Sequence record: PP445229.1
From: Escherichia phage EC.W2-6
Strand: one strand, 5' to 3'
Length of the DNA: 64,000 nucleotides
A program made the position numbers and the translations under genes. Numbering within the stretch: the first letter of the stretch is position 1; every line of letters begins with the position of its first letter. This document shows positions 4,670 through 62,661 of the stretch, one piece after another. The notes under the pieces are model-generated. The model made no database searches. It was not told where the DNA came from and saw only the letters and a list, made by a program, of their open reading frames with translations.

Positions 4670-4878
4670 TGAGACCGATCACTATGAGACAATTTTGGTT
4701 AGCAAAGATTAAGTGGGCATCAGGTGGTATGACTATGACTGCACTACTCACTCGTCAACAGGCTCGAGATTTTAAAAAGTCTATGTTCAATGTAGACTTA
4801 ACTAAGAGCATCAGTATTCATAAGGCCAAGGAGTATTCTTCTGGTCGTGTTTATATCAGCGGAAAGGTACATTACTAA
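4669..4878 (+). CDS. small protein, tandem paralog 2 of 3
   Basis: 69 aa; TAATG stop-start overlap; ends GKVHY. Confidence 0.45.
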   Translation: MRPITMRQFWLAKIKWASGGMTMTALLTRQQARDFKKSMFNVDLTKSISIHKAKEYSSGRVYISGKVHY

Positions 4879-5087
4879 TGAAAAAGATGTGGGCTATTCA
4901 TGTTGTTTGGGATCTTGAGCAACACATGAGAAAAGATAACATCAAATTGTTTGACACTCGCAAAGAGGCTCGTATTGCTAAGAAACAGTTGAAGACTCTG
5001 GGCACAATAGTAAAAAGCGCTGACATACATCGCTGGTATGAAGACCCTAACACTGGTTCTTTTATGTCTAAAGTAATTTACTACTGA
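4878..5087 (+). CDS. small protein, tandem paralog 3 of 3
   Basis: 69 aa; TAATG overlap; ends KVIYY. Confidence 0.45.
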   Translation: MKKMWAIHVVWDLEQHMRKDNIKLFDTRKEARIAKKQLKTLGTIVKSADIHRWYEDPNTGSFMSKVIYY

Positions 5088-5111
5088 TTGGTAGTAGATA
5101 TGATAACTCTC

Positions 5112-5122
5112 AAATGTATATA
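5112..5122 (+). promoter_or_regulatory. candidate phage-specific promoter element (AATGTATA motif)
   Basis: AAATGTATATA about 40 nt upstream of ATG 5160. Confidence 0.3.
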
Positions 5123-5159
5123 GAGTACAATAAGAATTTGTATTTTACAGGAGAGAGTT

Positions 5160-5489
5160 ATGTTAGATTTGAGTAAAGTGGCCCCGCCCACTGAAGAGAT
5201 TACAAAATCCAAGGTGATGCAACAGTTTTATCATCGTGATATGCTTGGTCGCTTTATCAAGAATCGTGATGTTGTTGCTTGGTCTATTGGTAATCAGGGA
5301 TATCTGTTGAAGGTTCTTCAGGTTACAGGCTCAACTGCTAAGCGAGTTAAGGTGTATGACCCTGAAATGGGGCGTTCTAAGTCAGTAGACCCACAGAACT
5401 GCATCGTAATTACCCAGCAGGTAATGGATAATATTGCACGTAACGTTGCTAACTCAGTTGAACTTGATGGAGAAAACCCAAATGCATAA
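5160..5489 (+). CDS. hypothetical protein
   Basis: ORF with GGAGAGAG RBS; no recognisable motif. Confidence 0.4.
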   Translation: MLDLSKVAPPTEEITKSKVMQQFYHRDMLGRFIKNRDVVAWSIGNQGYLLKVLQVTGSTAKRVKVYDPEMGRSKSVDPQNCIVITQQVMDNIARNVANSVELDGENPNA

Positions 5490-6045
5490 GAATGTTTTTG
5501 ATTTACCTGAGATTGGTCGTGACAGTTATAGTATGTTAGACCGGTCTGATCTTTCAATCTCTCGCCTTGAAACAATGCAAGGCATGATTAGTGCAAACAG
5601 CCTAGAACACATCCTGAGCTGCTTACAAGCTAACATGGAACTATTGCATATCAAAGCTAAAAACTACCACTGGAACGTCTCTGGTGCAGGATTTCAGGGT
5701 GTCCATGGTATGTTTGATGAGCTGGAAGATTACGCACGACAGGTAGGAGATCGTATTGCTGAACGTATGCGTTACCACTGTGTTAAAGTGGATGCTACAG
5801 CAGCTAATTATCTTTCTCATGCTTGGTTCTCAGAGGGGAATGCTGATCTAGACATGGACGGTATGCTCTCTGATATGTGCATGACCTTGATGTGTATTAT
5901 TGAGAAGATGGATGAGTTTGATGGTGATTTAGCCTCCCACCCTGTCGATCAGAGTATGCTTCAAGAAATTAATGAAGGTCTTGGCAAGTATTGCTACTTC
6001 GTCAAGAGCAACATGTCCCATTCAAGTGGTGACGTGTCTTACTAA
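5482..6045 (+). CDS. Dps/ferritin-like protein
   Basis: KNYHWNVSGAGFQGVHGMFDE...DRIAER parallels the Dps ferroxidase region (HWN..G..F..VHE..D...AER); ATG at 5482 overlaps upstream stop. Confidence 0.55.
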   Translation: MHKNVFDLPEIGRDSYSMLDRSDLSISRLETMQGMISANSLEHILSCLQANMELLHIKAKNYHWNVSGAGFQGVHGMFDELEDYARQVGDRIAERMRYHCVKVDATAANYLSHAWFSEGNADLDMDGMLSDMCMTLMCIIEKMDEFDGDLASHPVDQSMLQEINEGLGKYCYFVKSNMSHSSGDVSY

Positions 6046-33093: not shown

Positions 33094-36000
33094 TTATCTC
33101 CGCCCGCCAACAGCAAACTCTATCGTTAAACCATTGATAGCAGCATTACTATTAACATCATTATCTATAACATTATAGAAAAGGTATGGATGGTTCAGTC
33201 TCACCGAGACATGCCTGTCAACACCGATCGTATATGTCTTAGATGTGTGTGGGTGTCCATATTCATTTGAGAATTGACTACCACCAGCTTCAAATATGTA
33301 AGTACCTGAACCAGTTGTCTGAGGTCGGAACCTGTTAATATGCTTCTGATTCCACTCATTCGTCACATTATCAAAATCTATACCAGTCCTCTCCAACCTC
33401 ATTTCCAGAGGCTTCTCTATAACAACATCATTTAGCCTGTCATAGAAGTAATCAAGAGCACCTACATCCACTTGATAGAATCCCTTCAAGAATGAACCTA
33501 CTATCGTAACCCTCTGTCTAAAGTTTGTTGCATCCTTTCTCCAAACGAGTTCTTTAATAGATGGGTCATCCCAAGTGATTTCTTGGAAGTCAGACCAGAT
33601 TGGACCTCTTTCTAAAACAGGAGGATCAACCAGACCAATACACTGAGCATATGGGATAGTACGGAATGACCAAGTATCAAACTCGTAGTTCCATACAGCA
33701 GCTTTAGTACAAGCGAAGCTTTCTTTTGGCTCTCCCGGACCTACGTACAGAACCCAAACTTCTTTCTTATCCTGATGCAAATGCACTCGAGTTGCTAGAG
33801 GGTTAACCAGACATACCTCGTTAATCAGCATATTCTTAACACGGTTAGATGCAATTGACTTCTTAGTTGCACCGTTGTGTAAGATTACATCGTTCTGAGT
33901 AACTACGAAGTGACTACCTTCTACTTCAACCACACACTCAGGAGCAAGGATACCAGAGTCGTTAAAGAGCTTCTTGAACATTAGAGGTTGGTACGTGTTA
34001 TTAGTCGGAGAACCAATATACGTTTCAAACTCTGTATAAACGAACAAGTAATCTTTAAGAGGTAGGATATCAATCAAGCTACCATTAGAATCTGCTAAGT
34101 CAATGTAACCAGCATACCCATTCTCTAGAGCCTGAGTCTGCCCTACGATGTTAGAAGCTAAGTCCGAAGACACAACTCGATCATAGGCAAAGTCATCCCA
34201 CAGTGTAGGAGCCTTGTTCTCATTGGCAAAGTTAGACCAACGAAGACGAAGCGGGTAGTTAGTGGTAACACCAGAAGCATTAGCCTCTCTCATATTCAGA
34301 GCAAAAAGACGGTTGTTAAAAGATCTTACTCTCTCACATTTCCAGTTAAACTTCTTGACTGAAGGGTTTCCATCACTATCCACCACTGTTTGCTCACCCC
34401 ACCCCGGAAGGTCTACAAAGTATTCTGATTCGAATTCTTTTACCTGAGGAGTTTCATAGTGAGTTGTAGCAACTGCACAGTTAGAGATAACAGCGTGATA
34501 CCAAGGGTAGTCATCAAAAGCATCGTAATCCTTCTGAGTCATCTGACTGACAGTACATGTTACGTTAATCTCTCCTTTACGAAGAGCAACCAGTTTGATA
34601 GATTTACCAGTGACTGAAGTTGTAGAAACATAACCAGTTTTATCAACAGACCACTGATAAGAGTACTCACCTTCTGGAGAAGCTGTGGCTGTAATGACAA
34701 CCTCTTCACCAACATCAAGAGAAGCGCTGACAATATCTAAGGTTACAGATGACAAAGGGGTTGCCAGTAAAGAAGCTCTTGCAAAACCTTCAATGTCATT
34801 CACGTTAGAGTAGTCATAGAAGTTATTACCTTCGTACATCCCTGACGTATCAATACCGGATGTAGGCTCAGCAAAATAAACCGTCTCTTCACTTTCAGGA
34901 GGAGTTACTACTTCTTCCTCTTGAGTTTCTACTGACTCTGACACAGGAGCAGCAAATGCCATAGAACTTGTTCTCATTGTTCTTCCAGCTAAATCTACAC
35001 GTACAGTACAGACAGCAACCCTGTTGCCTTCTTCAGTGGTAGCTGTAATCTCAGTAAAGCCAGCAAGTAAAGCGTTGATCGTCCCTTGTGTGCTAGTCCC
35101 TGATACTGTTGCAATATTTGGATTAGAAGAGGTCCAAGTAATATTTTGATTAGGGGCGTTAGCAGGAGAAAGGGTAGCAGTTAAGATATACTGAGAACCT
35201 CTACTCACAATAACATCTGACTGGCTTAAAGAGATACTATCAATCTGAGGGATGGAAACAACCTCACAAGAAGCAGTCTTAGTTCCGTTATCAGCAGTGA
35301 TTGTTACATTACCTTCTCCATTCGCTGTAATGACAGCAGTTAAAGAATTGGCGTTAGGGGTTACGGATACAATAGAAGCGTTATTGCTGGACCAAGTTAC
35401 AGGAGTCTTGCCAGTAACAGCCGTGAGAGTAGTAGTCCCTCCTTTACGAATTGTAACAGTGTCTTGACTCAAGAAGATGCCTGAATCACCGTCGATGATA
35501 TTAACAGCAATCTGAGCCACTACGGATTCGTTGGCAGTAGAGATAGTTACTACAAGATTACCTTCTTTCTCAAAAGATGTTAGAGTAGCAAGTTTAGAGT
35601 CACTAGGGTCTACCGTAATACTTCCATAGGATGAGTTACTAACCTCCCAAATAAGATCAGTATTGTTAGCATCAGCAGGGAGAAGAGAAACCTCTAGATT
35701 CTTGGTCTGATTGAAGTTCATTGAGATAGTTGATTCTTTAGGAACGATCTGAGAAACAACTGGATAAATCTTAATTGAGGCAGAAGCCTTCTTAGTGACT
35801 GTAGCAACCTTACGGCTAATATCAGTCAAGCTTTCATCTGTCAGTTTATATAACTTCTTATCCGTACCTACAACAAGAAAGCTATTACCTGCGCTATAAT
35901 AATCGAAAGGCATAGAAACGAAAGACAGAGGGGTTAAATCCTTATCTTCATCTACATAAGAAAGAGGGGCATTGCCCCCCGTCTTAAATACTCTCTGCTC

Positions 36001-48651: not shown

Positions 48652-50193
48652 TTAGTAACTCTGATTCCATCTGCTTACGTTTGCCTCATACAGAGAAGCA
48701 CTTCCGTAGCTAACGTCATGCTTAGAGCGACCACGATGTGTAACAGAGCACGCTGAATAGCGCATTGCATCCATTAAGTCATCATGTTCTTTAATAATCT
48801 TACCAACCTTACGGTGATATCTAGCTTTCTCTTCGAATAGCTTAGCATTAGCGGCTGTGTTAAAGATTTTAAAGCGTCCACTCATCATTCTTTCTCGGAT
48901 ATCTGTGATTCCCGGTTCTACAAAGAAGTTCTTTTTACCATCCATTCCAATTTTGTTGTAGAAGGTCTCACTCTGTACGTTAACTCCTGCATTCTTATAG
49001 AATTGAGCAACAGATGAGCCACTACCTTTCTCAATATTGTCCGCATCGTGCGGTAGGATGACAGGAATCCACTGACCACGACCATTAATAGCTGGAGCAT
49101 GATACACTGGAGTAAAGCCACCTTCTTTATATGAGTCGTAAACATAGATAGTATCCGTGTTTGCATCGTAAGCTGTCCAAACAGCAGCAGTTGGGTGATC
49201 AATACCAATATCAATTGCACAGACACGTTTCCACGTATCAGGAATTTCGAATGGTTCACATTTAATTGTGTCATCCGATACATCATAAATCAAACCACTT
49301 CCTAACAATGGCATACCTTTCGAACGCATCTCTAACTGCCACGCTGGAATACCTTCAGTCATATCTTTTATATCTTGGTCAGTGATATGTCCACCTAGGT
49401 CTGCATGAGCATCCCACCAAGAAGCGTTCTGGAAATATAGAGAACCTGTGTTCTCATCCCCTTCGCCTTTCATAAATTTATCTACCAGTTCAGTTAAACC
49501 GTTCTCTGGTGTAGCTGTAATTGTAACTAGACCTTTAGTTGTGAGTGTACGTGTGACGCACTGTGCGAATATAGCCATAGACTCGTATGGATCTTCTTCG
49601 TCTAACCAAATGTAGTCAACTGTTGCACCCATCAATGTGTGTTCACCCTGTTGGGTTGAACGGAATTCTAATGTACTTAAACCGTCAAACTCCCCTCTCT
49701 CATTTTGATGTTTGATTTGTACGATTTGAAGTTTGTTACCATCTCGTTCTATCGTGTCAATGACGATAGCATCACGAGGAATGACACCTGTCCCCAATAA
49801 GTTTGTATCCTTTCCGATAGGTGTACCAAACAATTCCTTTTGCAATACTTTCCTTGTGGAATCCCCTGTAATACCAACTGCCCATGCTAAGATAGGTCTT
49901 TTAAATTTATATCCTGTCCACCAAGTTGGGTAGCGACCTGTGACATGACAAGCAAACTCGTATGCCTCGCTATAAGATTTACCAACACGGTTCGCTGCAC
50001 ACAAGAATCTAAAGCGATGCTTCAATCCTGCTGCATAAAATTTCTTTTGGAAGTCATACGCCTTGAAAGACAAAATCTTATTATACTTCCTCCATTGGTC
50101 ACGCTCTTTCAACATATTCAATAGTGCTTTCTTTTCCTCTACACTAAGATTGTTACCAGTTAGAGCTTCATAAATTTGTTTATCTAATGACAT
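48652..50193 (-). CDS. terminase large subunit
   Basis: Walker A-like AANRVGKS, Walker B IWLDEE, C-terminal nuclease-like region. Confidence 0.85.
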   Translation of the reverse strand: MSLDKQIYEALTGNNLSVEEKKALLNMLKERDQWRKYNKILSFKAYDFQKKFYAAGLKHRFRFLCAANRVGKSYSEAYEFACHVTGRYPTWWTGYKFKRPILAWAVGITGDSTRKVLQKELFGTPIGKDTNLLGTGVIPRDAIVIDTIERDGNKLQIVQIKHQNERGEFDGLSTLEFRSTQQGEHTLMGATVDYIWLDEEDPYESMAIFAQCVTRTLTTKGLVTITATPENGLTELVDKFMKGEGDENTGSLYFQNASWWDAHADLGGHITDQDIKDMTEGIPAWQLEMRSKGMPLLGSGLIYDVSDDTIKCEPFEIPDTWKRVCAIDIGIDHPTAAVWTAYDANTDTIYVYDSYKEGGFTPVYHAPAINGRGQWIPVILPHDADNIEKGSGSSVAQFYKNAGVNVQSETFYNKIGMDGKKNFFVEPGITDIRERMMSGRFKIFNTAANAKLFEEKARYHRKVGKIIKEHDDLMDAMRYSACSVTHRGRSKHDVSYGSASLYEANVSRWNQSY

Positions 50194-52836: not shown

Positions 52837-52864
52837 TTGACAGGTTTTTCCTTTATTATATAGT
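52837..52864 (+). promoter_or_regulatory. sigma70-type early promoter
   Basis: TTGACA, 16-nt spacer, TATAGT; spacer TTTTCCTTTAT shared with promoter at 55090. Confidence 0.5.
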
Positions 52865-53805: not shown

Positions 53806-54069
53806 ATGGCTATCAAAGAAATTAAGTTATCTAATGGCTTTTCTTGTTTTGTTGGTGGAAGCTCTATCCTGTTTAATACACTTGATGGTCAGATAACGTT
53901 ACCTGTTATCACTTTTTGCAGGATGGAATATCAGCCTCTTAAAGATTGGCTAGCCTTTGCTGATTTTGAAATTACCCGTGAAGACTTCAAATCAATCTAT
54001 ATTGACGGTGATTTATCACTGGCTAACCTGCTCAATCATGGACTAATTAAGGGTGATATTAATGGGTAA
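53806..54069 (+). CDS. early hypothetical protein
   Basis: ORF with GGGAG RBS. Confidence 0.45.
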   Translation: MAIKEIKLSNGFSCFVGGSSILFNTLDGQITLPVITFCRMEYQPLKDWLAFADFEITREDFKSIYIDGDLSLANLLNHGLIKGDING

Positions 54070-54316
54070 TGAAACAATCGCACTGATTGACACGCACAAT
54101 TACGGTGGCGTTACGCTCTCCTTTGATGAGTCAATCGACTACACTTATTTGTCCTTTCTAACTAAGGGTGAAATAAAAACTATTAGCTTTCCTGCGGTCT
54201 ATTTAGTACAGGATTATCTCACTATTGGGAAGTATTTAGCCCAACGCGGGATTCTTCTGTCGCTGGAAGAAGTGGAACAGGTTAGCGTAGCATTTTTTGG
54301 CGAGGATAGCAACTAG
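54062..54316 (+). CDS. early hypothetical protein
   Basis: ATG at 54062 preferred over GTG 54053. Confidence 0.4.
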   Translation: MGNETIALIDTHNYGGVTLSFDESIDYTYLSFLTKGEIKTISFPAVYLVQDYLTIGKYLAQRGILLSLEEVEQVSVAFFGEDSN

Positions 54317-54420
54317 TGATTCATGATTATTTTTGGCGTTGCTTGTTCGTTGTTACAGTGGCGTTATTCGTCGCTGATATGCTTTATTCTTATATTCTCT
54401 AACTATAGGTGATTATTATC

Positions 54421-54786
54421 ATGGGTATTATCAAATTTGTAGTAAAAGTATTCGTGGGCTTCTTCCTTGTCGTTCTCCTGCTGGGTGTGCTCCTATCGGC
54501 TATGGGTAGCGTTAAGGCTGCAACATTCTCCCCTGCTACGGTGGAAGGTTTACAGTGCACCTATTTGATAGAAAATTATGATACCGGTAAAAAGTCACCT
54601 AAAGTTATTATTTTGCATGTAAATGATTTCGATCATGTGCAATCAGATAGTAAAACTATTCTACTGGTAAATGAAACTACTGGTAAACAAATCACGGTCG
54701 ATCACTTGATGCGCTCATCGTTAACGCTCTTTGATGAGTCCATGAATGAAATGGCATCCGGTAATGGTCAATGTGTAAATCCATAG
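54421..54786 (+). CDS. early secreted/membrane protein
   Basis: N-terminal signal/TM (FVVKVFVGFFLVVLLLGVLLSA); followed by terminator. Confidence 0.45.
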   Translation: MGIIKFVVKVFVGFFLVVLLLGVLLSAMGSVKAATFSPATVEGLQCTYLIENYDTGKKSPKVIILHVNDFDHVQSDSKTILLVNETTGKQITVDHLMRSSLTLFDESMNEMASGNGQCVNP

Positions 54787-54863
54787 GCTTAATCTTTCTC
54801 CTGTATTGTGCCGTAGTCATGCCTATGGTCATAATTTATCTGATGCTTTAAATCCTTCCTGTA

Positions 54864-54890
54864 AGCCTCCTAGTGAGGCTTTTCTCTTTT
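54864..54890 (+). terminator. intrinsic terminator
   Basis: AAGCCTC-CTAGT-GAGGCTT then TTCTCTTTT. Confidence 0.6.
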
Positions 54891-55089
54891 ATGAGGTGAT
54901 TGTATGCCTTACTCCCTTTTAGCTCGTTGTGGTGCGTTACAGGCCGCTTATTATTGCTTTACAAGCCGTTTTCTATGATGTATCACGCGCCCCCGCTCTT
55001 TTACCTCCTGATTTCTTCCGGTGTCCTACCGACAATAAAATAAATTCCTTTATAAAACAGTGAGATGAAAAATAATTTGAAAAAAGGGT

Positions 55090-55117
55090 ATTGACATGAT
55101 TTTCCTTTATAGTAATA
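55090..55117 (+). promoter_or_regulatory. sigma70-type early promoter
   Basis: TTGACA, 16-nt spacer, TAATAT. Confidence 0.55.
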
Positions 55118-55296
55118 TGAATCCCGTAGTAAGCAGTAAGTAACAACAAGTAGTAAAAACTCCTCGATAGGTGATTAGCATCACGGTAAAAGGCTTCAAC
55201 GGGGAGCGGTAGGAATACCGACAGTAAGACGCACAATGAAGGTGCTACGCTCTTTAAAAATCAGGCTAGAAAGTGAAAATATTCTTAAAAAGAGTA

Positions 55297-55325
55297 TTGA
55301 CACCGAAAACAGCCTGATTCATAAT
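55297..55325 (+). promoter_or_regulatory. sigma70-type early promoter
   Basis: TTGACA, 17-nt spacer, CATAAT; near-duplicate of promoter at 55599. Confidence 0.55.
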
Positions 55326-55443
55326 AAGCACTCAGTCAGCGATGACTTAAAAAATCCCGCTCTTTAAAAACTTATCATCTTGCCTTTTCGCATAGATTCA
55401 CGCGAGATAAGGGAAAAGAATAAAAGAAGATGATAAAAAAGAG

Positions 55444-55472
55444 ATTGACAAGCTAACACGATGTGTTAAGCT
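55444..55472 (+). promoter_or_regulatory. possible sigma70-type promoter (weak -10)
   Basis: TTGACA with poor -10 (AAGCTG) at 17 nt. Confidence 0.25.
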
Positions 55473-55598
55473 GTAAATGCTACACCGCTCTTTAACAATA
55501 TGAATCATAAGTTAAGCATCACCGCTTAATCTTCAATCAAATAAAGCTGATTGATATATCCTCCCAATAGCGGGAACGACGAAAAAGATTAAAAAGTG

Positions 55599-55627
55599 GT
55601 TGACAGCGAAAACAACATGATTCATAA
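55599..55627 (+). promoter_or_regulatory. sigma70-type early promoter
   Basis: TTGACA, 17-nt spacer, CATAAT. Confidence 0.55.
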
Positions 55628-56549
55628 TGAGCACTCACTAAGCAAATCACCGCTTCAGTGAAAAGCGTAACAACGGCTAACAGTTGCATAGTGTGAGAAA
55701 GCACACTGATAGATTTACCGCTCTTTAATAATTTAAACATTCTCCTATATCGGTTGAATATGTTAGATGATAATAACCATCGGATAACATACCAGATAAA
55801 ACGGTGTAAGATTCTCTAAACTATCAGAGAAAACAATCTTATAATCCCTTGCTGGAAACGTCACCACTGATAAACGGATTCATTGAGTGTACGCAAAGAT
55901 TTAAGCTAATCGCCCACGGTTAAGGGTAGCGGCGGTCATCGCTAACAAGGCGCTACAGTGAAAGAAGTTAATCAGGGTAGGCAAGCCCGAAGAATTAACG
56001 CTCAATTGAGAGCGGCGGGGAGTGGTTAAAAAGTGGCAAATTGCTATTTAACAATAAGGTTTAGTGTGAACGTTTACGATGTGAATGATTTGAGGCCACT
56101 ATTGATGGCGTACATAGTCAGTTTATGTAGTAAACTTGCCGAAAGATATAAAACGTCAGAACATTAGACGGTCAATGACTCTTTCACAATAGCATCCCGT
56201 TGTGGGCGATGGCTAGTGATTGAGAGTTGATACAAAAGGATAGGCGAGAGCGAAAGCAAAGTAGACGATATTGCCGACGGTTACAATAAACGTAACTAAT
56301 TAGAGTCGGACGCACTGCCTTATTGTGATGATTGATCATCGCTATCAGGTCGGCTTCGTTTATAGCGACTAATTAAAGATACCAGATGAAACATCACGGA
56401 TAAGGGGGCGGCAAGGTTAACTCCTGATAAGACCGCCCCGCTTACCTATAACTACTTAACAACGAGTGGTTATAGTTAAGTTAATAGTGACTTAAACAAG
56501 CTCATAGAGAGCGGGGCAATAGCGCCCTTACAAGTGAAAGGTGAATATC

Positions 56550-57449
56550 ATGGCTAAAATCTTTACTCTGGTTAACGAATCCGGTTTTAATGCTCTGGCT
56601 AACAACATTCGCAGTAATAACGCGGCGATCAAACAAGATGTTTCTAACTTCCTGTTAGGGCACTTACAGCACTTCCGCAGTAATGGTAAGAAGCTGGACG
56701 TATTGCAGTCGGCGGTTGACTTTCTGTTAACTGAACGTTTCCGTGATATGGATGTTATTGCCACTGCAATTACTTTCTTAACTCCTATCAAGTTTAACAC
56801 CGATGCGGCAAATGGTCGTAAAAAGTGGATTAATCTGGAAGGTGAGGCGAAAGCTAAAGAAGACGCGAAAGAAGCGCAAATTAAAACCAAAATGGAACAA
56901 AACCGCGCTCGCTGGTCAAATGCTTTCGAGAATTTTGCTTTAGGCCGTGAAATTGAAGTTGATAATCCTAACTTTTACAAGGGTTGCAATGACAACGTGG
57001 CGGCACACCTGCAAATCCCGGCGAAAAACAAGGAAGATTTTAATCAGGATATTTACGCTTTAGTTGAACGCTTGAATGCAATCCGTATTGAAGCCAAATT
57101 ATTGGCTGATGAGCGCAATGGTGCTACCAGCGATAACACTATCGCCTTAAGTGAAGAAGTGGGCAAAGTTAAGAAGTCATTCGACTCGCTCATCAAGAAA
57201 GTCACGGCCTCAACGGTAGCGATCTCTGATAACTACCTGATGAACGCATCAAGCAAGGAATTAGAATCACTCGATTCATACGCTGATGAAATGGAAAAGA
57301 CTGTTGCAGCTATGCAGGAGAAGTTAGAAAGTCTGCGCGGTCGTATCTCTTCAACGGTTGCTACCCGTACCGAACAAGCTGCGAAAGCAGAAGAGGAAGA
57401 AGTATTGCGTAAAGCGGCTGAAATTATGGCGGCACGTCAAGCGGCATAA
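56550..57449 (+). CDS. early protein, unknown function (300 aa, helical)
   Basis: AAAGGTG RBS; first ORF after tandem promoter array and long leader; terminator follows. Confidence 0.55.
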   Translation: MAKIFTLVNESGFNALANNIRSNNAAIKQDVSNFLLGHLQHFRSNGKKLDVLQSAVDFLLTERFRDMDVIATAITFLTPIKFNTDAANGRKKWINLEGEAKAKEDAKEAQIKTKMEQNRARWSNAFENFALGREIEVDNPNFYKGCNDNVAAHLQIPAKNKEDFNQDIYALVERLNAIRIEAKLLADERNGATSDNTIALSEEVGKVKKSFDSLIKKVTASTVAISDNYLMNASSKELESLDSYADEMEKTVAAMQEKLESLRGRISSTVATRTEQAAKAEEEEVLRKAAEIMAARQAA

Positions 57450-57472
57450 GTAAGACAATTTAAATAAACATA

Positions 57473-57506
57473 AGGTGCTATCTTAACGGGTAGCGCCTTT
57501 TCTTTT
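57473..57506 (+). terminator. intrinsic terminator
   Basis: AGGTGCTA...TAGCGCCT stem then TTTCTTTTAT. Confidence 0.5.
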
Positions 57507-58275: not shown

Positions 58276-58719
58276 GTGGCTAAATCTAAAATCAGCATGA
58301 AGGGCGGGCGTTGTTTTTCTATATCTGAACTGGAGAAAGAGAATCCAAAGGCAACCAATCACGTCAGCAAGCGTAGTTTAAAACGTCGTGCTGCAAAGGC
58401 TGAAGCTGAATCCCATATCCCTTCTAGTGTGGCAAAACGTGTAGGCCATCGTGTCCATCGTGCTGATGCGTTATTGTTAGCCGATCATAAACGTTCTTTG
58501 TTAAAGAGCGGGGGAGCAAAAACAGAAGAGGAGAAGAAGTTAGAAATCTTCTGTAATGGTCGCACCCGTGGTAAACAGAAGTTTAAGGGTAGCACGAAAG
58601 ACCCGCAGGCTTTTCCTAAGACAAGCCAGTGCGCACCTGATGTTTTCTACGCAGACAGTAAACACAAGTGGGGCGTTGAAAAATACATTGATCCCATCAA
58701 AGAGGCGAGGGTAAAATGA
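58276..58719 (+). CDS. early basic protein (GTG start)
   Basis: AAAAGGAATAAGG RBS then GTG; Lys/Arg-rich. Confidence 0.45.
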   Translation: MAKSKISMKGGRCFSISELEKENPKATNHVSKRSLKRRAAKAEAESHIPSSVAKRVGHRVHRADALLLADHKRSLLKSGGAKTEEEKKLEIFCNGRTRGKQKFKGSTKDPQAFPKTSQCAPDVFYADSKHKWGVEKYIDPIKEARVK

Positions 58720-62585: not shown

Positions 62586-62661
62586 GCGCTCTTAGCTCAA
62601 TGGATAGAGCAGTAGCCTTCTAAGCTATTGGTTACAGGTTCGAGTCCTGTAGGGCGCACCA
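62586..62661 (+). tRNA. tRNA-Arg (anticodon UCU), CCA encoded
   Basis: Cloverleaf by hand: 7-bp acceptor GCGCTCT/AGGGCGC, D-arm GCTC/GAGC, anticodon stem GTAGC/GCTAT with loop CTTCTAA, T-arm ACAGG-TTCGAGT-CCTGT, then ACCA. Confidence 0.85.

Follow-up and report, generated by a model that had tools for sequence, protein, structure and literature searches.

Tandem promoters, boxA elements and a conserved structured leader RNA in the early region of a phiEco32-like phage: a putative rRNA-operon-like cassette

The DNA analysed here (the window) is a stretch of 64,000 nucleotides (nt) of Escherichia phage EC.W2-6 (PP445229.1), and the subject of this work is a spacer of 1,760 bp within it (54790-56549), which carries tandem sigma70 promoters, repeated copies of an 11-mer matching the consensus of the RNA element boxA, and a folded leader in front of the gene gp124. 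The spacer corresponds to the interval between phiEco32 genes 125 and 124. It is 100% identical to that of Escherichia phages EC.W14-3 and EC.W8-1 and 92-97% identical to that of SU10, phiEco32, Paul and other Kuravirus phages, and on this similarity the window can be assigned to a Kuravirus (phiEco32-like) phage. The 95-99 phage records that match the spacer are all Gordonclarkvirinae of E. coli or Shigella; in GenBank, phiEco32 and most of the other relatives have no annotated feature there, and SU10 has a terminator only. The spacer leader heads a block of co-directional + strand genes that spans 52 to 64 kb and continues from position 1 to ~22 kb (circularly permuted assembly; GC skew). 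In phiEco32, the promoter cluster is located ~3.1-3.8 kb from the right end of the genome, and the gene-128 promoter ~0.67 kb from it.

Upstream of the spacer, four small genes (phiEco32 128-125) stand under their own promoter at 52837, so that gp124 is not the first early gene as the original prediction had supposed. An intrinsic terminator, made up of the hairpin AAGCCTCCTAGTGAGGCTT and a T-run behind it, closes this small-gene operon on the + strand (54863-54881), where SU10 and SU7 also have an annotated terminator. Downstream follows gp124 with its Shine-Dalgarno (SD) sequence, AAAGGTG (together 56537-57449, + strand; SD and ATG at 56537-56552; 299 aa, phrog_13018 of unknown function), and directly 3′ of it lies a terminator-like hairpin of 12 pairs with a T-run (57472-57499, + strand), which is annotated as a terminator in SU7. 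Between these limits, the ~1.7 kb without a credible gene was borne out: no + strand ATG open reading frame (ORF) of at least 25 aa is conserved among 19 relatives, and no short spacer ORF of at least 8 aa combines conservation with an SD in front of it. An ORF of 44 aa (56033-56167) is intact in 3 of the 19 relatives. Protein coding of the spacer was rejected for want of a conserved + strand ORF, and a minus-strand ORF of 41-51 aa is missing from divergent relatives. The spacer contains no tRNA.

Three to four sigma70 promoters, all on the + strand, are found in the first part of the spacer, and they are already known, being annotated in SU10 and phiEco32. They may make up the host-RNAP capture array that had been suggested earlier. 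P1 (55070-55118) consists of an A-rich UP-like tract, a -35 TTGACA at 55091, 16 nt and a -10 TAATAT, with 10 of 12 matches in the promoter scan. P2 (55276-55325) has an A-tract, TTGACA at 55297, 17 nt and CATAAT (11/12), and P4 (55600-55628) has TTGACA, 17 nt and CATAAT (11/12); equivalent sites of both are listed in SU10 Table S2, and the P4 module is present in 19 of 19 aligned relatives. The candidate P3 (55445-55472) has TTGACA, 16 nt, TAAGCT and a TGT extended -10, is marked 'alt -10?' in SU10 Table S2, and is replaced by TTGACAAGGTGAAACGTTCTGATAGAAT in some relatives. An A-rich tract, AAAAAG(A/T)G..TTGACA, lies directly upstream in all four. As had been predicted, at least three of the promoters (55091, 55297, 55600) are near consensus, and two of them, P2 and P4 (55297 and 55600), are near-duplicates, with 86% identity over 44 nt. 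Moreover, P1 (55091-55118) is a near-duplicate of the gene-128 promoter (52837-52864; TTGACAnGnTTTTCCTTTAT...), and the spacer promoters thus form three sequence families: P128/P1, P2/P4 and P3. The gp36-type middle/late promoter motif TAATGTATA does not occur within the spacer at up to one mismatch.

The repeated 11-mer is CCGCTCTTTAA. Five copies had been counted earlier; five sites are indeed present, but only three are exact (55357, 55485 and 55718), and the other two have one mismatch (54993 and 55247). In the whole window, six matches with at most one mismatch were obtained (the sixth outside the spacer) against 0.71 expected, and none of 100 shuffles reached six. The functional boxA consensus of gamma-proteobacteria, GYTCTTTAANA (Baniulyte et al., PMC5725501), has four perfect + strand matches inside 482 bp of the spacer, starting at 55249, 55359, 55487 and 55720. 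Over both strands of the whole window, seven matches to this consensus were found, against 0.46 expected, and again 0 of 100 shuffles gave as many. These four + strand elements are boxA1 (GCTCTTTAAAA, 55249-55259, ~+125 from the inferred P1 start), boxA2 (also GCTCTTTAAAA, 55359-55369, ~+28 from P2), boxA3 (GCTCTTTAACA, 55487-55497, ~+9 from P3) and boxA4 (GCTCTTTAATA, 55720-55730). The distance from boxA4 to the ATG of gp124 is 826-834 nt in 21 of the 22 sequences over which leader length was compared, and 865 nt in LAMP, which has an insertion. The most upstream site, GCTCTTTTACC (54995-55005, + strand), is degenerate, and in this phage it does not agree with the consensus of boxA; in several relatives it is retained together with a perfect CCCGCTCTTTAAAAATC ~120 nt further downstream, which is absent from the window. 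In PAS59, MLP3, EK010, EP335, ECBP2 and others, boxA4 reads GCTCTTTAACAATTTA, which is a 16-nt identity to the boxA region of E. coli rrnH; the rrnH leader, fetched for comparison, reads TGCTCTTTAACAATTTATCAG, and the boxA4 stretch in this window reads GCTCTTTAATAATTTA.

Box conservation, on which the original prediction had made its own rejection depend, was assessed at 21 related loci, and all 21 keep the boxes: each spacer has 3-6 perfect boxA copies, on the + strand only, and the minus-strand matches, which four loci have in the gp120 ORF, are all outside the spacer. In the relatives compared, the promoter/boxA array stands out as a hotspot at which modules have been gained, lost and exchanged, while P4, boxA4 and the RNA behind them are constant. 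The boxes persist although the surrounding promoter modules have been swapped, duplicated or lost, and each spacer promoter has a box before the next promoter. The distance between the inferred start and the box ranges from ~9 to 125 nt. Since the motif is asymmetric, occupies one strand only and stands at variable distances from the promoters, it is more readily understood as a signal at the RNA level than as a DNA operator. The gene-128 promoter, which is followed by a translated gene within ~70 nt, has no box, and boxes are found only where transcripts are untranslated, which matches the known logic of boxA in front of rRNA and of arrays of clustered regularly interspaced short palindromic repeats (CRISPR) (PMC7665894). 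By its sequence, the repeated 11-mer is identified as boxA, the RNA site where NusB and S10 load the rRNA-type antitermination complex, and binding of these factors to the phage boxes is predicted; the earlier suggestion of sites for a host regulator thus survives in the form of RNA-level boxA for NusB/S10, and not as a DNA operator. As far as the literature could be searched, the recognition of boxA in phiEco32-like phages is new.

Some further matches deserve mention beside these boxes. A perfect minus-strand CCCCCGCTCTTTAACAA lies at 58499-58509 in the gp120 ORF (58276-58719), and the same is seen in NJ01 (two record copies), IMEP8 and Bas94; no consensus promoter was found on the minus strand of the window, and this match may be due to chance, to coding constraint or to an antisense boxA. 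GYTCTTTAANA also occurs on the + strand at 33549-33559 and 48786-48796 (GTTCTTTAATA), where the genes run on the minus strand, and both matches are probably due to chance. The boxA-like stretches TGCTATTTAACAA (from 56042) and GACTCTTTCACAA (from 56177) are off consensus and lie within supported helices, and they were not counted. As for the array itself, phiEco32 (L002 3402-3586), SU10 and many others have ~180 nt more between boxA2 and P3, which are absent here (window 55370-55445).

The leader of P4 forms two covarying hairpins on the + strand (55671-55707), CAACGGCTAACAGTTG and AGTGTG-agaaag-CACACT. Variant pairs are seen in relatives: CCAC..GTGG for the former, and GCGTG/CACGC, ACGTG/CACGT and GAGGTG/CACCTC for the latter. 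In 19 of 19 relatives the AGTGTG hairpin ends 10 nt before the 11-mer CCGCTCTTTAA, that is, 12 nt before the consensus boxA4, and relative to boxA it holds the position of boxB in the E. coli rrn leader.

Behind boxA4, the last of the boxes, a segment of 830 nt reaches to the start codon of gp124. It can be aligned over its full length in all relatives, with 74-77% identity to the most divergent ones, and is conserved as well as the adjoining coding sequence. The RNA alignment was made of 19 distinct relatives with 74-100% identity, and RNAalifold gave 232 pairs in 38 helices, with standard pairs in 99.0% of 4,403 alignment cells. Compensatory changes on both sides were found in 78 pairs (310 cells), compared with 39.1 +/- 3.6 pairs (81 cells) in a column-shuffle control, in which 0 of 500 shuffles reached the observed value, and with 6-15 pairs (11-36 cells, 36-47% pairing) when the 3′ partner was slid by 1-3 columns. 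Many pairs occur as three or four pair types, such as 46-70 (CG/UA/AU/GC) and 509-541 (GC/AU/CG). The covariance search that had been proposed for 55.7-56.5 kb thus came out positive, and of the possibilities raised at that time the non-coding RNA is upheld, in the shape of one large structured RNA with extensive covariation.

The strand and the constraint of this RNA can also be read from the alignment. G-U pairs, which are A-C mismatches on the other strand, make up 11.2% of the cells, so that pairing is 99% on the + strand and 88.0% when read from the opposite strand; the minimum free energy is -249.8 kcal/mol (z = -5.4) for the + strand and -217.7 for the complement. From these three properties it follows that the functional molecule is the + strand RNA, not the DNA. 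When the window is compared with PAS59, TH34 or TH42, the four-fold degenerate sites of gp124 are 52-56% identical, and in the same comparisons identity is 73-75% in the paired and 75-79% in the unpaired columns of the RNA, which indicates purifying selection on paired and unpaired positions alike. Covariation, strand bias and constraint together lend strong support to the leader being a conserved, large, structured + strand RNA of ~800 nt. To judge by Rfam and the literature that could be searched, this RNA has been undescribed so far.

In the fold model, domain I (55732-56030, helices 2-15) is closed by 55732-45 with 56017-30 and includes, besides hairpins, an irregular long arm of ~120 nt (55860-55982). 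This closing helix is the first long-range helix of the RNA and begins 2 nt past boxA4. A hairpin (56031-56049) stands between domain I and domain II (56051-56326), which is closed by 56051-68 with 56311-26 and includes the heavily covarying helices 20, 21, 23-25 and 28; domain III (56327-56395) and five 3′ hairpins (56405-56528) follow, all on the + strand. The GC-rich hairpins noticed earlier before the gene are real (56405-56439 and 56513-56528), yet they are the 3′ end of a far larger fold. In the GC-rich stem GGGGCGG...CCGCCCC (56405-56439), the loop GCAAGGTTAAYTYCTGATAAG is constant save for two pyrimidine positions. In addition, an all-against-all scan for covarying stacks gave a candidate + strand helix of 9 bp between 55909-55917 (ATCGCCCAC) and 56202-56210 (GTGGGCGAT), which is paired in 19 of 19 sequences with two compensatory pairs and supplants two unsupported local stems; it is a candidate tertiary contact by which domain I would meet domain II at their tips. 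RNAalifold helix 1, which pairs boxA4 with the SD region of gp124, was rejected, as it has zero covariation and is broken in TH34 and TH42. Two repeats were also noticed inside the RNA: GCTCA-nnn-GAGAGCGG(C)GGGG at 55997-56025 and 56498-56527, each copy being a small hairpin and then a G-run, and TACCAGATRAAAC at 55789-55802 and 56379-56392.

Taken as a whole, the sequence architecture of the spacer is rrn-like: tandem strong promoters, boxA, a large untranslated structured RNA, and a first long-range helix abutting boxA. It is probable that the spacer works as an rRNA-operon-like cassette, in which host polymerase modified by Nus factors would make a Rho-resistant, correctly folded leader and read into the early genes. 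According to this model, the three to four tandem sigma70 promoters with UP-like A-tracts would be active upon entry of the DNA into the cell, and every transcript would soon bear a consensus boxA. Host NusB-S10(NusE) would bind the boxA RNA and, together with NusA, NusG and SuhB, make an rrn-type elongation complex, as is expected from what is known of the Nus factors. Such a complex should be fast and resistant to Rho, and it should keep the 5′ RNA near the exit channel, by which long-range helices could form. The modified polymerase would then cross ~830 nt of untranslated, folding RNA before it reaches gp124 and the co-directional early genes, and the gain of the phage would be Rho-proof, fast synthesis and folding of the leader together with read-through into gp124 and the + strand block. 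It has been reported that Nus factors block Rho termination without N and promote rRNA folding, and in recent work correct co-transcriptional folding is the main role of the Nus complex on rRNA (PMC5725501, PMC10250234); untranslated CRISPR arrays are likewise protected by boxA (PMC7665894).

Among known systems, the E. coli rrn leader is close to the spacer. Both have strong sigma70 promoters in tandem, with A-rich tracts upstream of them, a boxA that in phage and rrnH is identical over up to 16 nt (GCTCTTTAACAATTTA), a hairpin shortly upstream of it (in the phage, of boxA4), and a large untranslated structured RNA with its first long-range helix beside boxA. They differ in that the phage array has no boxC and has one boxA per promoter (4-6 copies), and in that its RNA of ~800 nt is unrelated to rRNA and runs into protein genes of a virulent phage. 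With lambda nutL/nutR, the proposed likeness is a boxA RNA soon after the early promoters and a termination-resistant polymerase over a long operon. However, no boxB-type hairpin is shared downstream of the four boxes here, and no N-like antiterminator was detected by Pfam or PHROG matches among 10 flanking early proteins, a search by profiles that small arginine-rich proteins could escape; on these two grounds the lambda nut model is unsupported, and the rrn (N-independent) model fits better. Moreover, the boxes here have the full rrn-type consensus, whereas lambda boxA (CGCTCTTA) is shorter. Like the A1-A2-A3 cluster of T7, the spacer is predicted from its sequence to have tandem strong host promoters near the genome end and before the early genes, followed by an untranslated leader, and a role of these promoters in transcription-driven genome entry, by analogy with T7, is possible. 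The early leader of T7 is shorter, at a few hundred nt; what it is known for is an RNase III site, not a fold of several domains, and it is not known to have a boxA array. GOLLD and ROOL RNAs are also phage-borne, several hundred nt long and of complex conserved fold, but the present RNA has no Rfam match, is restricted to Gordonclarkvirinae, and lies inside an early transcription unit with boxA. The boxA elements of CRISPR arrays and suhB (PMC7665894, PMC5725501) resemble the phage boxes as N-independent boxA before a long untranslated transcript, blocking Rho; they are cellular, occur one at a time and are not accompanied by a large folded RNA.

Several observations weigh against the cassette reading. 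A GT-rich, boxC-like TGTGTGGG does not follow any of the boxes. For simple antitermination three of the four boxes are redundant, as every transcript crosses boxA4, and P3 is a weak or uncertain promoter. The leader is C-poor (18% C, G>C), and being also highly structured it may resist Rho by itself. In the accessible literature, which did not include the two phiEco32 papers in J Mol Biol, no experiments on the spacer were found. Finally, the distant relative 7-11, a Salmonella phage of C3 morphotype, has a similar ~1-kb ORF-free leader yet no boxA. In 7-11 (L065, NC_015938), ~1,050 nt without annotated genes extend on the minus strand (4865-5917) from the genome end to gene 151, the first early gene; tandem sigma70 promoters predicted in a publication are located further upstream still, and the leader fold has a z-score of -2.4. 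A gp124 homologue is also absent from 7-11, and its sequence has no similarity to the Kuravirus RNA. The 7-11 leader may be an analogous, non-homologous long early leader.

Other explanations of the same facts have to be weighed. The RNA could be an ordinary long 5′ untranslated region (UTR), which only stabilises or processes the early mRNA, in the way of the RNase III sites of the T7 early leader, or tunes the translation of gp124, with boxes that serve only as a guard against Rho. The RNA and gp124 are always found together, and they are not separated by a terminator or a T-run, so the two are predicted to be parts of one transcript, as such a UTR would be; downstream of the promoters, the first intrinsic terminator on the + strand is that at 57472-57499. 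Given the strong hairpin behind gp124, the RNA and gp124 may be a unit of their own, insulated in part from the rest of the early region that it heads. However, ~800 nt, 38 helices and unpaired segments conserved far above the neutral sites go well beyond the needs of known stability or processing elements, and in SU7 the RNA is 94% and gp124 79% identical to the window, a gap that points to independent recombination of the two. Size, conserved unpaired segments and recombination independent of gp124 all argue that the RNA is more than a stability element, and the plain UTR is considered unlikely. It is rather improbable that the transcripts, produced in quantity from four strong promoters, act chiefly as a decoy, in which many boxes titrate NusB/S10 (and SuhB) off host rrn and aid shut-off, with antitermination of the phage's own transcripts as a secondary effect. 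The presence of as many as four perfect boxes on a transcript for which one would be enough, the maintenance of 3-6 copies in every relative, and near-consensus promoters with UP-like tracts would suit a decoy, but the constant ratio of one box per promoter suggests duplication of a cassette rather than selection on box number, boxA4 is fixed beside the first long-range helix, and titration has no direct evidence.

A folded leader might also modify polymerase directly, in the manner of HK022 put or Bacillus EAR, and make the boxes accessory, since a conserved structured RNA does head a long operon. The known put and EAR elements measure roughly 70-120 nt, and ~800 nt is far beyond the needs of such a role; no Rfam family matched, even at E<=10. 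Although the authors of the 7-11 study inferred an antitermination strategy in that group, which they left "to be defined" (PMC8948821), an antiterminator of this cis-acting kind is held to be very improbable. As for a DNA-level element, whether operators for a phage or host regulator or a replication origin or packaging site with DNA hairpins, the position near the genome end that bears the early promoters and the short repeated motifs could be cited in its favour. It has to be set against boxes that are asymmetric, confined to one strand and 9-125 nt from their promoters, against helices whose G-U pairs would be mismatched on the other strand, and against a GC skew that changes sign near 52 kb, away from the spacer, and not at it. 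Only this last explanation is clearly disfavoured among the rivals, and the chance of its being right is judged to be minimal.

Within the rRNA-operon-like cassette, the RNA may be a giant 5′ UTR with a role in cis, or else an abundant early RNA with a role in trans. More tentatively, and with some doubt, the Gordonclarkvirinae RNA (~0.8-0.9 kb) could be a new class of large structured, trans-acting RNA, made by way of the hijacked host machinery for rRNA synthesis and folding (boxA/Nus complex, rrn-like tandem promoters) and accumulating in the first minutes after infection. In that case it might be a scaffold or decoy for a host factor such as a ribosomal protein, an RNase, RNA polymerase or a defence sensor, and would contribute to host takeover or to the reported broad defence resistance of these phages.

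The RNA family appears, from the searches made, to be confined to Gordonclarkvirinae coliphages (E. coli/Shigella). Rfam 15 gave no match to positions 54000-57500 at E<=1, and at E<=10 the best matches had 11-20 bits against gathering scores of 34-167, which is noise only. A host origin of the RNA is unsupported, as blastn of 5,426 E. coli genomes gave zero matches, and two scans with invariant motifs had no match among the genomes of 100,044 species of bacteria and archaea. The scans of IMG/VR and of metagenomes returned only close relatives, with 5 and 8 true matches respectively; the remaining 29 of 37 loci in the metagenome scan were chance matches. Nowhere in the searchable literature, the two primary phiEco32 papers being outside its scope, were phiEco32-like phages linked to boxA, to antitermination or to a spacer RNA. 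By the same literature and Rfam, an rrn-style cassette with multiple boxA that drives an unrelated RNA of ~800 nt in a virulent phage is new.

The authors of the BASEL collection called the molecular biology of this group "poorly studied" and noted its high resistance to defence systems (PMC11990801). For phiEco32-like phages, boxA offers a testable answer to how host polymerase is driven through a long untranslated leader and the gene block behind it, and if that answer is true, it would be a case of a virulent phage using Nus factors in the rrn manner, independently of N. The leader adds a large, well-supported structured RNA family in a common phage group that is being isolated and tested for phage therapy. 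In practical terms, the spacer, though "non-coding", is not a safe place for payload insertion, and the promoter-boxA cassette could be reused to produce long non-coding RNAs in E. coli.

Two minor observations were made on the early region around the spacer. Some records and PHROG name small early proteins upstream of it (53806-54786) 'terminase', 'polymerase' or 'cathepsin L-like cysteine proteinase' (L005, L007, L011, L015); on early proteins of 55-124 aa without Pfam support, these terminase, polymerase and proteinase names look like annotation artefacts. Further downstream, a tRNA-Arg gene (anticodon TCT) is present among the early genes, at 62586-62661 on the + strand.

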